Shown here: positions 3,185 through 26,505 of the stretch, piece after piece
Numbering within the stretch: the first letter of the stretch is position 1
How the letters are laid out: each line of letters starts with the position of its first letter
Virus record (IMG/VR): IMGVR_UViG_3300032260_000016
Span: 1-31,361 of that record
Length of the DNA: 31,361 nucleotides
Strand: one strand, 5' to 3'
Source: a virus
Lineage: Duplodnaviria; Caudoviricetes
Position numbers and translations under genes: made by a program
The notes under the pieces: generated by a model
Databases searched by the model: none
The model's input: only the letters and a program-made list of their open reading frames with translations
What the model was told of the DNA's origin: nothing

Positions 3185-3212
3185 TTGACACATACCAACA
3201 CCATGATACACT
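3185..3212 (+). promoter_or_regulatory. Sigma70-type promoter with extended -10
   Basis: Perfect TTGACA (3185-3190), 16-nt spacer containing TG at 3204-3205, then TACACT (3207-3212); intergenic and upstream of 3311. Confidence 0.75.
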
Positions 3213-3310: not shown

Positions 3311-4072
3311 ATGAATGACAACACAGCACAAGACACAGAACTACAAGCAGAAACACCTAACCCTGTTGCTGCTACCGGCCCTGTAACTATCGTGGCCACT
3401 AACCCAACAGCGGAAGAAATGAAAAATCTCTGTGAAAACCTTAAAGTTAACCATGACTTCAAGGTAGATGTAAAGCCTATTCGCTTTAACTTTAAAAAAC
3501 AGAAAGACAAAAGTAGCGGTATCGAAACCATCCGTGAAGCTGTAGACTTAGCTCTGCCTGTACCTTCTGTCGAAGGTATCATCGATATCCTGCAAGCTAC
3601 AGATGAAGATGGTAAGAATAAGCAGCTTGAACTCCTGCAAGATGCTATCGAAGGCGTAATTACAGCTATTGCCCGTGATATCATCTCAGAAGATCATAAG
3701 ATCAATGCATCTAACTTTCCTATTGATAAAGTGTCCTGGAACGCTATCGCTAATATGCCTAAAGCACAGCGTCGTGGCGGCGGCATTCCTAAAGAAGTAT
3801 GGGAAGCTTTTGCACAAGATTACATCGAAGTCATGCCAGAAGTTACTGGTAAAGGTGTTGACCAGGTATCTCGTGCAGCGAGCTTATTCCTTAATAAGCT
3901 TTCTAGCGTTCGTACAGCAGAGCCTATTCTGCTACTTCTTATCGATCAGCTTGCCATCTATGCTGAAAACTCTCCTAACATTGAGGAATATAAAGAGTGT
4001 GTTGAGTTCTTACTGAACAAAGCAGACACTTTCCTCAATATCTCTCCTGAAGACCTGCTTGCTAATCTATAG
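3311..4072 (+). CDS. Acidic hypothetical protein, probably highly expressed
   Basis: 253 aa; TAAGGA RBS; own promoter; only ATC/ATT for Ile and CGT/CGC for Arg. Confidence 0.9.
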   Translation: MNDNTAQDTELQAETPNPVAATGPVTIVATNPTAEEMKNLCENLKVNHDFKVDVKPIRFNFKKQKDKSSGIETIREAVDLALPVPSVEGIIDILQATDEDGKNKQLELLQDAIEGVITAIARDIISEDHKINASNFPIDKVSWNAIANMPKAQRRGGGIPKEVWEAFAQDYIEVMPEVTGKGVDQVSRAASLFLNKLSSVRTAEPILLLLIDQLAIYAENSPNIEEYKECVEFLLNKADTFLNISPEDLLANL

Positions 4073-4085
4073 GGGTATAGATAAG

Positions 4086-4296
4086 TAAGAATCTTCAAGG
4101 TTCTTGTATTAGCTCCCGCCATCTGAATTTATTATATCCTCTTAGTCAGATAAGAGTATGTAGTAAAGGTGGGAGCTATCTTAAAAAGAGACTCTTTGTA
4201 TAAGATGACTACCGCTCCCCAGCTTCCCCGTCATCTAGTATAGCTAAGACCTCCCCTCTTAGTTGTATGCATGTACAGAGAGTCTCCCTTTAAGAT
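4086..4296 (+). ncRNA. Candidate structured non-coding RNA: bulged long hairpin plus three-way junction with C-rich loops
   Basis: Stems 4086-4094/4098-4106, 4110-4120/4168-4178, 4128-4144/4151-4167, 4177-4184/4289-4296, 4188-4202/4272-4286, 4203-4209/4230-4236, 4238-4249/4257-4268; nearly all non-Watson-Crick pairs are G-U on the + strand. Confidence 0.7.
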
Positions 4297-4358
4297 ACAG
4301 AATGATACAGATACAAAGTAGTAATAACACCAGTAACAACTCTTAGTAGCGAGGTAAT

Positions 4359-4612: not shown

Positions 4613-4945
4613 GTATGGTAGTGATTGATTATGTTACTGGATATACTGATACTACATGCACTAACATTGCTGCTTACTGTGATACACGGATAGTATCCAT
4701 CCGTGCCCTTCCAGCTCATATGTCTTACTCTCTACCTAAGTTAAAGATACCTATTCGTAAGGGGCCAAAACAAGACTGGTATATACCCCTATATGCGTTA
4801 CCAAAAGGCCAGTCTCCTAGAACTAACCGCCCTCTTCAGAGAGCTTCAAGTTATGGCTGACTACTCTAGCCCTCAGAAGTAACTGATATAGAGAAAGAGC
4901 TACCCTTATATGCGAGAGGGTTATGGTGAAGGGTAGCTCTTTTAT
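4613..4945 (+). ncRNA. Second candidate structured RNA region, overlapping the doubtful ORF 4615-4860
   Basis: Stems CACGGAT/ATCCGTG (4685-4705), CCCTT/AAGGG (4706-4763), AGACTGGT/GCCAGTCT (4773-4815) enclosing a CCCC-loop hairpin, CTAGA/TCTAG (4817-4869), and a 14-bp terminal stem. Confidence 0.45.
4894..4944 (+). terminator. Perfect 14-bp inverted repeat: terminator or RNA processing stem
   Basis: AAAGAGCTACCCTT (4894-4907) / AAGGGTAGCTCTTT (4929-4942), ending in a short T run. Confidence 0.55.
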
Positions 4946-4980
4946 AAGATATAATTTAGAAAATATAGGAGGTATAAATT

Positions 4981-5172
4981 ATGAGTAAGCCAGAAGATAC
5001 AATCATAATGAATAAAGCCAGCTTTACTAAAGCCATTGTATATGGTATAGGTAATGCAGTGCTTGTACCTTCAGATAAGATCGAACAATGGTATGAACAG
5101 AATGCACATAAGCATATGGCTTATGCTAATTACTTATTTAGTATAGAGCTTAAGAGACAAAGGAGTCTATAA
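4981..5172 (+). CDS. Hypothetical protein
   Basis: 63 aa; perfect AGGAGGT RBS. Confidence 0.75.
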   Translation: MSKPEDTIIMNKASFTKAIVYGIGNAVLVPSDKIEQWYEQNAHKHMAYANYLFSIELKRQRSL

Positions 5173-20200: not shown

Positions 20201-22303
20201 AGGGAAGTTCTTAGCTTCCTCTCCTATAGCTTCTCCAAAAGCATTATTAGTTCCTTGCATGTATAACTTCTGCTGCTGCTTGATTCTTACCATATTCTCA
20301 GACACATGGCCTTTACTAAGACCTGTAAGATCCTTAGCCTCATATGCTAGCTTAACTGTTTGAGGTACTTCAGTGAGATCCACTACACCAGCAGTTTCTT
20401 TTCTAATGCCTTTATCCACTAAGCCTTTTGTATAATCTCTAGCATAAAAGTCAAGAGCAAGAGCATCATCTGAGATACTTTGAGATCTTGTACCTGAGAG
20501 ATATCCGGGCCTCACATTAACTACAGCTTCAATCTCATCCTGAGAGAGTTGTACATTTAGTTTCTCTTGCCCTTGTTTCTTAGAAGCCTTACCCATCTTA
20601 GAGGTTTTACCTAGGCGCTTAGCCTGAGTCTTTACATCTGCTAAGTGTACTCCTACAGTCTGCTTAACTTCGAGAAGGTGGTTAAATAGAGACTCTGGAT
20701 CACTATAAGATATAAGATCTCCAGTCTCAGTCCGAACTTTTATAGAAGGTGAGAACTCTCTATATAACTTCTCCATCATAGGAATATCAAACTCATCTAC
20801 TATTACAGGCTTCTTAACTGTAGACTCAGGAAAAGCCTTAAGTTTAGAGGCCCATAGATATCTTGCATTAGCTTCTAAAGGATCAGCTCTAAGAATATTC
20901 CAAGGCTCTTTAGGAGAGAATTTCCAGGTCTGTTTTCCAGCAGATACATAAGTAGGCTCAATTATGATCTTCTGTCCTTTCTTAAGAGTATCCACTACAC
21001 TAGTGATTCTAGGAGCTGCATCAAATACTTCGCCAGCTCCAGCTCCCCAGATACGAGTGTGAGCTACATTAAGAGACAGGTTTCTTTCTGCTGCTTGCAA
21101 TGCCTCATCTCCTCCTCCAGCAGCAAGCTTACCTAGCTTAGCTATCTCTTTCTCTATATCAGTTACTTCAGCAAGCCTAGCTGCTCCTTTAAGACCCATA
21201 AAGGCACTAAGTCTTTTATCCGGTGAAGCGCCTCTTGAAGCTCTATATACTGCCTCAGCTACAACCTCATCTCCTTTAGCTATCTTCCCTAGATTCATAC
21301 GGATGTCACCTTCTATCTTAGTGATCTTTTCCTTAGCATAACCTGCAAGAGTCTCAGCAGTTATGATTGTATCTTCTGCTCCTGCCTTGATTCCGGCGGC
21401 TGGTATCTTAGGCATAACCTTAAGCTGATCCAAATCTATAGCTATGGCTTCATAAGGATTAGATTTACCAGCTGGAGACCCTAGATACTTCCAAGGGGAA
21501 GCTACTCTATCAGCAGCAGTAACTGCCTTCCTTGCTGTATAGAAGCTTTTAATTGCACTGACTCCTCCGCCTATACCTCCGAATAGTCCTGCGCCCCATA
21601 AGATATTAGATGTCATATCTCCTAGATCTTTACCCTCAAGGATAGGAGAGCTAGACATGGTAGCAGATATAGCTATTTCGAAAGCAGCCATCTCATAAGT
21701 AGCTTGACCTAAACCAGATCCAGCAGCAGCTAATACATTCCTATTTATAAGAGATGGTACAGAGTCTCCATTGACTGCTTCGGAAAGAGCCTTAGCTAGA
21801 TGTCTCTGCTTATTAGGAACGAGGAGACCTAGAGCTTTAGATGTATTAGCTCCAAACTTATTAGCAGCAAGTGCCCCCTTAAGAGCTGACTGCCCTGCAT
21901 GAAGCGCCTTAATGCCTGCCATACCTGGAATCCAAGAAGAGGCAAGGAAGCCTGTTAGATCTATTCCTTCCTTATGCTCTTGGTAATAGTCTCCAAGATT
22001 TGAATCTAACCCTGCTATAAACTCTTCTGGCCCGGATACATCATAGTCACCGCCAAACATATTACCTATACTAGCAGGTATATTATATAACTGATTAGCC
22101 CCAGATATAATAGAGAGACCTACGAACTTAGGTACACTATCTACTGTATCAGCAACAGACTCAGCAAAGGTCATATTACCATTTGCTAGATTATGGCTAT
22201 CAGTAGCTACCATATAAGAAGGCATCATGACTGGACGGTTATCTTCCTCTTCTCCCTGTCGTAGCAAGGACTCTTCATAAGCTGTTCTGAAAGCTGTTGA
22301 CAT
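17300..22303 (-). CDS. Large internal virion / DNA ejection protein (T7 gp16-like position)
   Basis: 1667 aa, Ala/Gly/Lys-rich, essentially Cys-free, helical; last gene of the virion operon. Confidence 0.7.
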   Translation of the reverse strand: MSTAFRTAYEESLLRQGEEEDNRPVMMPSYMVATDSHNLANGNMTFAESVADTVDSVPKFVGLSIISGANQLYNIPASIGNMFGGDYDVSGPEEFIAGLDSNLGDYYQEHKEGIDLTGFLASSWIPGMAGIKALHAGQSALKGALAANKFGANTSKALGLLVPNKQRHLAKALSEAVNGDSVPSLINRNVLAAAGSGLGQATYEMAAFEIAISATMSSSPILEGKDLGDMTSNILWGAGLFGGIGGGVSAIKSFYTARKAVTAADRVASPWKYLGSPAGKSNPYEAIAIDLDQLKVMPKIPAAGIKAGAEDTIITAETLAGYAKEKITKIEGDIRMNLGKIAKGDEVVAEAVYRASRGASPDKRLSAFMGLKGAARLAEVTDIEKEIAKLGKLAAGGGDEALQAAERNLSLNVAHTRIWGAGAGEVFDAAPRITSVVDTLKKGQKIIIEPTYVSAGKQTWKFSPKEPWNILRADPLEANARYLWASKLKAFPESTVKKPVIVDEFDIPMMEKLYREFSPSIKVRTETGDLISYSDPESLFNHLLEVKQTVGVHLADVKTQAKRLGKTSKMGKASKKQGQEKLNVQLSQDEIEAVVNVRPGYLSGTRSQSISDDALALDFYARDYTKGLVDKGIRKETAGVVDLTEVPQTVKLAYEAKDLTGLSKGHVSENMVRIKQQQKLYMQGTNNAFGEAIGEEAKNFPEISAREIQEEANRMGSGATLFGAASSNYKTLAAKTEYIGKTTLRVIDKAKESVMETMEASLYKLGQNTGAAIEYATLDNVLRSIPDVSYTLNEARTAMVPLAIKRWEAAAAKATATGKAIPKRPVLTVLDAPLEIPIKNAEAAQQIAMNMELNGKTIEKYRILRTSQGTPYTRDPEAYYPIPVNPKDYKHFALVEDKSITGTGHTKTLYASTADELKVMARKLDNNPNLTVRFKGDAEKYYKDRGQFEYEKTLSDNYLDAAMYRKGVSSSYLVPTDPKKIVDDVLNWHLQRAAGLVREAVAVKYEVPFAELRRLGDNFTRVETSQFSGISTLKYADDVIANPYVDFIKTSLGLRKYSDYPFLVETNKLVDRAFTKLLTKVSDTVEGAKNPQELLEANRMLKEGGYKGAAYDESMDLFANHQARRGELTNIVQKTNSVIATVVLRWDQMNAVVNAISANVLLGAETASIIRSIRKGGDEVWGEWTELSHIAVPGTDRSILAAGKMIFNSMRKFNLPQYLKGKDIPEMQFYRKHGFMTSISDQYKKALDDLTFNPAESISAWNSRVDGVQKTLREAANTGEKWTGNRLAEEFNRFVAADVMKQMTDIGVKRGLITPQEQLAYINTFVNRTQGNYLAAQRPMMFQGPIGQAVGLFQTYQFNLMQQLLRHIGEGGSKDAMTLLALQGTIHGANGLPAFNAINTHIVGTASGNTEHKDLYSATYGAVGKQAGNWLMYGMASNMFLHPDLKVNLYTRGDINPRHLTIIPTDPSQVPAVQATGKFFANLFETAGKLTAGGDVVTTLLQGLEHNGVSRPLAGLAQTLEGLENPLGQSYSTSNRGNVIASNDLLSLANLGRIVGGKPLDEAIALDAMFRNKAYTLVDSRRRAKLGEAIKTTMIAGKMPGKEQIEEFAEAYAAAGGKQEQFNRWFLQQYKVANLSQANKLSQDLNGKFSQSMQDIMGGGELRDFTE

Positions 22304-25530: not shown

Positions 25531-26505
25531 TTATGGAGAGATCTCATCTATCTTCTCCACCAGAATCTCTAAAGCTGAATGAATCTGAAGTAGTGCTGCA
25601 TATACTTCTGGGTCTTCTACCTCTGGGACATTACCTAGATTAAGGTTTATAGCACTATTGATTGTAGCTATAGGCGCAGTGTTAGGTAGACCTAAATCTA
25701 TTGTTGCTACTCTAGGAGTGATAACTAAGGAGTCTGTAGTAGCAGTTACATTTACATCAAGAGATATAGTAGCTACATTCTCTGTGAGATTTAAGAGATC
25801 TACAACAGTAAGTATATTAGTGCCAAAAGCTACTGTGGCTACATTCTCTGCTAAGGTGAGTGCATCAGTAGTGACTGCTATATCGCGATCAAGAGCTATC
25901 TCTGCAGCATTAGGAACTAAGGAGAGAGCATCTGTAGTTACTGCTACATTATAGCCTATGTCTATAGATGTTGTATTAGCTGTTATAGTAAGTGCGTCAG
26001 TTGTAGCAGTTACGTTCACACCGAGAGTGATTGCAGCCGCCTGCTCTGCTAAGGTGAGAGCTGCTGTAGTGGCTAGTATACTTATATCATTAGCTATAGA
26101 CGCAGCTTGAGGAGTAAGTGTAAGCGCGTCTGTGACGGCTAGAACATTCCTATCTAATATGATTGTAGCTGTATTAGCAGTGATAACTAATGCATCGGTA
26201 GTAGCTGAGATACTTATATCTAATGCGACTGATGTAGCATTCTCTGTGAGTGCAAGAGCATCTGTAGTTGCTATAACATTTGTGTCGCCTGCTGAGAGAT
26301 CTACAGTAGCTGCATTCTCAGTAAGAATGAGAATATCAGTAGTGGTTGTTATAGATATATCTAAAGCTATTGAGGCTGTAACTTCTGTTAATACTAACGC
26401 ATCAGTGGTAGCTGTTACAGAAGTGTCTCCAGTAGCCTCTTGCTTCTCTATAGCTCCTCTATCTATACCGCTCTTCTGTATAGCGCCCCGGTCTAGGAAG
26501 CTCAT
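25531..26505 (-). CDS. Fibre-associated repeat protein with 11 repeats of about 22 aa
   Basis: Consensus approx. xNVxATTDALTLTENxATIxLD repeated 11 times; helical C-terminal domain. Confidence 0.8.
   Translation of the reverse strand: MSFLDRGAIQKSGIDRGAIEKQEATGDTSVTATTDALVLTEVTASIALDISITTTTDILILTENAATVDLSAGDTNVIATTDALALTENATSVALDISISATTDALVITANTATIILDRNVLAVTDALTLTPQAASIANDISILATTAALTLAEQAAAITLGVNVTATTDALTITANTTSIDIGYNVAVTTDALSLVPNAAEIALDRDIAVTTDALTLAENVATVAFGTNILTVVDLLNLTENVATISLDVNVTATTDSLVITPRVATIDLGLPNTAPIATINSAINLNLGNVPEVEDPEVYAALLQIHSALEILVEKIDEISP

Follow-up and report, generated by a model that had tools for sequence, protein, structure and literature searches.

The RNase III sites of bacteriophage T7 are simple hairpins with an internal loop. 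For T7 early mRNA five RNase III signals were described in a precursor of ~7000 nt (PMC3867540, excerpts), and R1.1 derivatives of this phage were studied in PMC1540722 (excerpts). An RNase III substrate comprises 22 bp with two box sets (PMC3867540, excerpts), and the consensus for the E. coli enzyme reads WNAGWGNNCWUNNN^NAWGNNCWCUNW, with the proximal box at -4 to -6 and the distal box at -11/-12 (PMC4357697, excerpts). According to the excerpts of PMC1540722, coaxially stacked helices can serve as substrates, a single box set is enough to specify a site, a G-C pair at position 2 of the proximal box inhibits binding of the E. coli enzyme, and internal loops can limit the enzyme to one bond, leaving protective 3' hairpins. 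In vivo, E. coli shows a preference for G-C pairs at the two positions that lie between the cuts (PMC6212723, excerpts). RNase III rules vary with the host, because the Aquifex enzyme ignores the sequence of the distal box (PMC3074117, excerpts).

RNase III sites in phage mRNAs and C-rich sRNAs matured by RNase III are already known, each separately. RNAIII and RsaE are sRNAs with C-rich loops able to pair with G-rich or Shine-Dalgarno (SD) sequences. DicF of prophage Qin is reportedly an sRNA made from an operon transcript via termination and processing by RNase III as well as RNase E; it belongs to a defective prophage and has a fixed sequence and a known target. The pRNA of phi29 is a phage RNA of ~120 nt in which a closing helix carries two arms, the loops of which are complementary to each other. 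6C RNA binds its targets through C-rich loops (PMC6486639, excerpts), and the icaR 3' UTR contains the motif UCCCCUG (PMC3868564, excerpts). The list of known phage sRNAs is short and comes mostly from temperate phages and prophages (PMC12197685, excerpts).

Here we studied a stretch of 31,361 nt of the virus record IMGVR_UViG_3300032260_000016 (in the following the window, GC content 37-45%). Behind the stop codon of a conserved gene for a 253-aa protein it contains an RNA element (Table 1) consisting of a hairpin (H1) and a long closing helix (H2), which encloses two hairpins with C-rich loops, in the following called the cargo. This element is real and conserved, and it is apparently undescribed. 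We read it as a composite RNase III site, formed by H1 and H2 in an early mRNA and harbouring exchangeable cargo, and assign to this reading, which was derived from sequence comparison, a probability of roughly 0.7.

Compared to the known systems the element shows a mixture of shared and deviating features. The T7 sites are likewise intercistronic RNase III stems in the early transcript of a lytic phage and follow the same box consensus, whereas here two stacked helices, often a terminator and a closing stem, would share the site, which surrounds variable folded RNA of up to ~110 nt. Unlike DicF, it belongs to a family of apparently lytic phages and its cargo is variable. With the phi29 pRNA it shares size and three-way layout; however, interlocking of the loops as in pRNA is ruled out, both loops being C-rich, and the element has no Rfam match. 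As in 6C, RNAIII, RsaE and icaR, C-rich motifs are left unpaired in the loops, and these could bind G-rich or SD sequences. In contrast to 6C, RNAIII and RsaE, the element is without an Rfam match and its motifs are not conserved family-wide, and unlike icaR the loops do not pair with the start region of their own gene. By layout the closest analogue is the sRNA CJnc190 from Campylobacter jejuni, which by its description resembles H1, H2 and the C-rich cargo (PMC8687705, excerpts). As far as these excerpts go, CJnc190 is chromosomal and has its own promoters and an antisense partner, whereas the present element sits behind a gene within a phage mRNA; CJnc190 can dispense with its 5' hairpin, while H1 seems to contribute a recognition box; and in the phage element, unlike in CJnc190, the cargo is exchangeable. 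A literature search, which covered few subscription papers, revealed no report of the window's element, of a distal box donated by a terminator, or of a phage processing stem that is conserved while its cargo can be exchanged, and five short motifs were absent from the searched supplements of a catalogue of viral structured RNAs (PMC10690425, excerpts).

Table 1. Features of the RNA element and its surroundings (window coordinates; functional labels of RNA boxes and promoter are predictions).
Feature	Position	Strand	Remarks
Sigma-70-type host promoter	3185..3212	+	TTGACA-16-TACACT with TG extension; 10/12 matches
253-aa gene	3311..4072	+	conserved; the RNA element sits 3' of its stop codon
Hairpin H1	4111..4177	+	abuts H2 without gap (0-nt junction); terminator in most relatives having H1
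AG, predicted lower distal box	4174..4175	+	at -12/-11, paired within H1
H2 5' arm	4177..4202	+	lower helix with proximal box CUUA 4180-4183; A-C loop 4186-4187; upper-helix distal box CU 4194-4195
Cargo hairpin A	4203..4236	+	7 bp; C-rich loop 4210-4229 with weak 3-bp inner helix
Cargo hairpin B	4238..4268	+	12 bp including 3 G-U; loop CCUCCCC 4250-4256
H2 3' arm	4272..4297	+	distal box AG 4279-4280; internal-loop CC 4287-4288; conserved UAAGA 4291-4295
Next gene, 83 aa	4359..4610	+	GTG start; position usually conserved
Second stem	4894..4951	+	shorter; 14 perfect pairs 4894-4942; z -3.34

The phage encodes in the window a Dda-like helicase, Sak4, DNA polymerase A, a primase and ThyX. Aeromonas phage P5 has a polymerase with 33% identity to the one encoded here, and for the PaP2/PaMx41 group the identity is 25%. 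The phage, a member of an uncultured family, has a size of about 44 kb, the longest contig with a homologue of the protein upstream of the element measuring 43,804 nt. This 253-aa protein has 560 homologues, the closest being 65-73% identical, and a structure model with a pLDDT of 77.6, is without a Pfam or PHROG family and without a clear fold match in PDB, and a search of a structure atlas gave a single viral match, which is unnamed. Neither the protein (TBLASTN) nor the intergenic region (BLASTN) gave a match among cultured phages, and with a profile of the protein a homologue was not found in Aeromonas phage P5, Polaromonas phage Tiera and Pseudomonas phage PaMx41. The family is abundant, a stretch PKxxRxGxG looks invariant and the strong promoter is conserved. 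A motif of the following gene (R.Y[QE].[IL]W) can be found at most 700 nt downstream in 55 of 98 related loci. No tRNA was found in the window, and a single DNA sequencing run that we examined, which may be the one the window came from, showed no variants. Degenerate repeats with a period of 66 nt lie at 25700-26430 inside a minus-strand gene, which probably encodes a repetitive structural protein. Three related loci from genome collections (L140, L141, L142) are on contigs of 7-44 kb in bins labelled Coxiella, Thermoprotei and Anaerolineae; these labels give no host, because the contigs are probably co-binned phage.

The region 4177-4296 folds at -47.1 kcal/mol (z -9.27) and none of 200 shuffles was as stable, which bears out the three-way junction of the original prediction. 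H2 is the strongest stem of the whole window (score 18; runner-up 14). It had been described as 8 + 15 bp; the helix as such was found, but a 2x2 AA/CC loop had been overlooked and the lower helix has nine pairs and extends to 4297. Thus 4177-4185 pair with 4289-4297 and 4188-4202 with 4272-4286 (9 + 15 pairs), with 4186-4187 opposite 4287-4288 in the internal loop. On the minus strand this loop would form two G-U pairs, which corrects the earlier argument from the non-canonical pairs, and the minus strand of 4177-4296 also folds (-42.9 kcal/mol, z -5.16). Selection on a plus-strand RNA is nevertheless supported by the covariation described below and by the G-U bias across relatives: their stems contain 51 G-U against 26 A-C, and the plus strand is the more stable one in 33 of 40. 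In the window's fold five G-U pairs are formed on the plus strand.

The three C-rich motifs are unpaired in the window with probabilities of 0.84-1.0. Of the three UCCCC motifs, all of which had been regarded as unpaired, two are so, while the U of the first is paired in a mini-helix inside loop A (4214-4216 with 4221-4223). The A of ACCUCC (4249) forms the closing pair of hairpin B. A comparison with Rfam had also been proposed, and no Rfam family matches the fold, neither in the window (Rfam 15, E up to 5; one weak unrelated match elsewhere) nor in 20 relatives at gathering score, which gave two tRNAs only. The exact 17-mer of loop B occurs in none of the viral contigs searched. The stem pattern of H2 gave 11 loci in viral contigs, none with the 253-aa gene, and these were treated as chance.

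To compare the locus, 142 loci were fetched, 139 of which have the stop codon and 115 of which are distinct. After removal of near-duplicates and of loci with less than 200 nt downstream, 98 were kept, including the window's own copy (L060). Behind the same gene 40 of the 98 loci have a stem with a score of at least 15 on a strand-neutral scale; the closing-stem element is not universal, because 58 loci are without such a stem. Its position is fixed: 35 stems with a score of at least 16 lie within 250 nt of the stop codon (24.5 kb), versus 11 in the other 406 kb of flanks. In 13 stems hand-picked from the 40, 16 of 22 pairs of H2 change on both sides and 88% of the cells are paired, with one alignment column unpaired in 10 of the 13. 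The covariation check thus turned out positively for the closing helix. Among the 40 stems the length of the H2 insert varies between 3 and about 110 nt, no sequence can be aligned with the window's insert, and the sequence of hairpin A is not conserved in any relative. Therefore the conserved part is the closing helix and not the C-rich arms.

Two of the inserts, those of L049 and L050, have a common scaffold CUGGUAA ... UCAAAGCAGAAA around differing hairpins, one of them with a CCCUCCUUUUU loop, as if a module had been exchanged. A second stem in L097 encloses a tRNA gene (L097:3388-3497; Ile according to ARAGORN), the acceptor stem being extended into the long stem, and with 12.5/15 this stem has the best RNase III fit of the set. 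Three other tRNAs among the 142 loci are not enclosed by a stem.

The structure starts further upstream than the position 4177 given originally, with H1 preceding H2. This abutting arrangement is present in 31 of the 98 loci versus 5 of 196 shuffles. In 23 of the 31 abutting relatives a U-tract follows H1 and doubles as the 5' arm of H2; behind the window's H1 there is no U-tract, so this hairpin does not qualify as an intrinsic terminator. Within the window's H1 the internal-loop sequence AUCUGA (4121-4126) is complementary to UCAGAU in the apical loop (4147-4152), and an alternative pairing is possible. The H1 loops of eight relatives in which H1 is a terminator (L070, L072, L074, L076, L082, L083, L090, L113) have a UUCCUU-like motif in common, which is complementary to ribosome-binding sites of the AAGGAA type; many of these loci have a short H2 insert.

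As scoring consensus that of E. coli RNase III was used, which may not be that of the host. Over the 40 stems the fit is 8.65, whereas the pairs in permuted order reach 7.45 +/- 0.13, with no null mean above 7.79; the tRNA-enclosing stem of L097 was scored in this test and its first stem in the later ones. For the window's stem alone the fit is not significant (8.5/12, p 0.23); the signal lies at the level of the family, the members of which are not independent. A mismatch at +1 is found in 15 of the 40 stems, with 3.3 expected. Circularity is avoided by a test on those 23 of the 40 stems in which a single mismatch alone fixes the register. Here register 0, with the cut just 5' of the mismatch, reaches 0.63, and other registers 0.28-0.52. 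AG at -12/-11, the lower distal box, occurs in 17 of the 23 (background 0.089, p 8e-14, uncorrected for relatedness), the upper distal box in 16 and both in 15; the window has both. At -5 a pair of the A-U type is present in 22 of the 23 stems (U-A in the window), and the proximal box of the window's lower half-site agrees with the substrate rules, having no G-C at this position.

A second test free of circularity used the 31 abutting cases. When positions -6 to +12 alone determine the register, the AG at -12/-11 belongs to H1 in 15 of them (p 1.7e-5), and no other offset gives more than 7. Therefore H1 appears to complete the 22-bp footprint (PMC3867540, excerpts). In the window a helix of ~22 bp would be available from the 9 + 15 pairs of H2 around the 2x2 loop if the abutting H1 stacks on it. 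The upper half-site is different: G-C at +3, an antideterminant position, is found in 14 of the 23 stems including the window, so that the upper proximal box is not permissive. The positions between the cuts are paired but mostly A-U, and the preference of E. coli for G-C pairs there, which is not a requirement, is not followed. The G-C at +3 bears on efficiency and on single versus double cutting, not on membership among the substrates. RNase III cutting stays likely, as a single box set is able to define a site; since the upper half-site is weak (A-C at +1, G-C at +3), it is also possible that the second cut is slow or that only one strand is nicked. From the comparative signal the RNase III cuts can be predicted to the nucleotide, in the window after 4185 and after 4290.

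The proposed course of events would be as follows. Host polymerase would transcribe from the promoter at 3185-3212, the likely source of the transcript through the RNA element, and pass through the 253-aa gene. H1 and H2 would then stack coaxially into a 22-bp stem arranged like an RNase III site, and host RNase III would cut the early transcript beside the A-C loop. A double cut would free a stem-protected piece of 105 nt (4186-4290), the upstream mRNA would keep H1 as a hairpin-protected 3' end, and the downstream genes would gain a new monophosphate 5' end. After a single nick or with a slow second cut the junction would stay attached to one mRNA. In relatives whose H1 acts as a terminator, the RNase III site would be confined to read-through RNA. 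With regard to the promoter, a site with at least 10/12 matches is found upstream of the 253-aa gene in 59 of the 84 relatives with enough DNA, and downstream of the stop codon in 3 of the 84.

The cargo had originally been seen as a silencer of ribosome-binding sites, and conservation of its loops in relatives had been named as a test. What recurs in the close relatives L142, L062 and L016 is the C-rich character, in the form of single-stranded stretches on arms unrelated in sequence to those of the window, but not the exact motif, CCUCC in the inserts being at chance level family-wide (3 vs 2.3). A quick protein tree with 54 rows places the window beside L142 and L062 (support 96), and L016 and L025 join this group with a support of 89. 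At least two unpaired CUCC/UCCU/UCCC motifs are present in three of the four clade relatives versus 3 of 20 stem-bearing rows outside the clade (Fisher p 0.035), a test which left out L039, too short for the quick tree and of ambiguous placement in a C-terminal tree. The insert of L025 has no anti-SD-like motifs. L039 (68% identity over the part covered) also has an insert without such a motif, and its H1 loop reads AUUCCCC.

Across the family these 4-mers are modestly enriched in the inserts of 31 relatives (25-100 nt), with 44 versus 26.1 +/- 4.3 in dinucleotide shuffles, or 37 versus 23.3 +/- 4.2 (1.6-fold) in the inserts of 26 clusters; upstream of the stem the count is 64 versus 54 +/- 6.2. 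Unpaired anti-SD motifs occur in 18 of 32 inserts, with 10.9 expected. In 89 hairpin loops UCC is as frequent as in within-loop shuffles (26 vs 25.7). The loops can therefore be called C/U-rich without a fixed seed, because CCUCC is at chance level and UCC equals the shuffles. As a possible target AGGAGGT (4967-4973) had been proposed, and this suggestion was not supported: its start region takes the 13th place among the 38 of the window, or the 6th when loop B is considered by itself. The own gene's start region ranks 33rd of 38 and shows no covariation with the loops (28 loci, p 0.60), and neither does that of the next gene (12 loci, p 0.72). On the basis of these ranks and the lack of covariation, the own gene, the next gene and AGGAGGT were rejected as favoured cis targets. 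Judged from its sequence, the window's cargo, if released, would likely be able to pair with ribosome-binding sites.

What becomes of the cargo is the point on which the alternatives differ. RNase III could nick one strand, or bind with little cutting, so that the junction stays as a stabilising end of an mRNA and the C-rich loops are passive C/U-rich filler or act from the 3' UTR. We consider this a serious alternative, though short of an even chance: the asymmetry with a mismatch at +1 and G-C at +3 is conserved in 14 of 23 stems, internal loops can restrict cleavage to one bond (PMC1540722, excerpts), and the loops at the locus are generally C/U-rich. On the other hand one box set suffices (PMC1540722, excerpts), both distal boxes are present in 15 of 23 stems, and L016, L039, L097 and L105 are without the mismatch. 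Alternatively, and as an extension of the processing-site reading which does not exclude it, the site could release a stable trans-acting sRNA of 105 nt that blocks ribosome-binding sites of the host or the phage. C-rich unpaired stretches kept on unrelated stems in the window's clade, the surplus of anti-SD 4-mers and of unpaired motifs in the inserts, the five G-U pairs that maintain the window's fold, the tRNA as cargo of a similar stem in L097 and the precedent of CJnc190 (PMC8687705, excerpts) speak for it. However, no seed is conserved, most inserts are without the motifs and some have only 3-10 nt, none of the 38 start regions of the window is a favoured target, C/U-rich loops also occur in H1 and other loops at the locus, the clade test was done without L039, and the weak upper half-site may prevent excision. 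We therefore hold the release of such an sRNA to be possible but somewhat doubtful, and regard with the same reserve the idea, taken from CJnc190, that in the window's clade the cargo might silence by pairing its C-rich loops with G-rich ribosome-binding sites. Rather unlikely is the further generalization to a modular small-RNA cassette of a widespread lytic phage family. In such a cassette a terminator hairpin and a closing stem would stack behind a strongly promoted early gene, and RNase III would excise the cargo much like the cropping of microRNA hairpins. The cargo would be swapped between lineages (a tRNA in the second stem of one relative, anti-SD loops in the window's clade) and provide a rapidly evolving antisense weapon against the host's translation. 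Should the cargo act in trans, the known phage sRNAs would gain a member from a lytic phage that works generally against ribosome-binding sites; if it does not, the element would be a compact terminator-plus-processing device which sets expression steps in an early operon.

Two other explanations dispense with RNase III. H2 might be an antiterminator or attenuator that sequesters the U-tract, or a DNA structure such as a cruciform or an origin, its RNase III likeness being incidental. The U-tract of H1 is indeed the 5' arm of H2 in the 23 cases mentioned, but the 3' arm would be made 25-110 nt past the termination point and thus too late to compete, H1 is not disrupted, and the window keeps the stem without having a U-tract. 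The G-U bias favours a single-stranded plus-strand RNA over a DNA structure, and neither accounts for the constant distance of the two boxes from the mismatch, which makes this explanation improbable. Still less probable is what the original prediction implied, a stand-alone sRNA gene equipped with a promoter and a terminator of its own. Its fold is very stable and self-contained; however, we found no sigma-70 site in 4073-4180 (the type searched for), no terminator where the fold ends on its 3' side and, as noted, hardly any promoters downstream of the stop codon in the relatives. Moreover, H1 passes without interruption into the 5' arm of H2, which in many relatives is the U-tract of H1, the conserved core is a closing helix of the RNase III type, most relatives are without C-rich cargo, and some loops are shorter than 10 nt.

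Further stems were noticed in the window and in cultured phages. The 3' flank of the second stem in the window (Table 1) resembles the 3' arm of H2, its RNase III consensus score is poor (3/8), and it is possibly a damaged copy of an H2-type element. A stretch of 27 nt on the plus strand (4876-4902) is a 26/27 copy of 21143-21169 on the minus strand, which is the coding strand of a gene for a 1667-aa virion protein (E 4e-5), and 90 nt further an exact match of 18 nt to the same gene follows (4991-5008 vs 21361-21378). The 27-nt copy reaches into the base of the 4894-4942 stem, the lower 5' arm of which may have been overwritten by it. The distant relatives PaMx41 (L145) and P5 (L143) have isolated intergenic stems of 20-28 bp enclosing 27-69 nt, with a weak to modest fit to the consensus and a conjectural homology to the element, among them those at L145 29716-29794 and L143 30801-30896. 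A 22-bp stem with an insert of 60 nt in PaMx41 (42480-42583) fits the consensus poorly (6.5/11, p 0.9), and the stem at 4979-5087 in P5 shows a modest fit (8.5/11, p 0.03), with the best register at its own mismatch.
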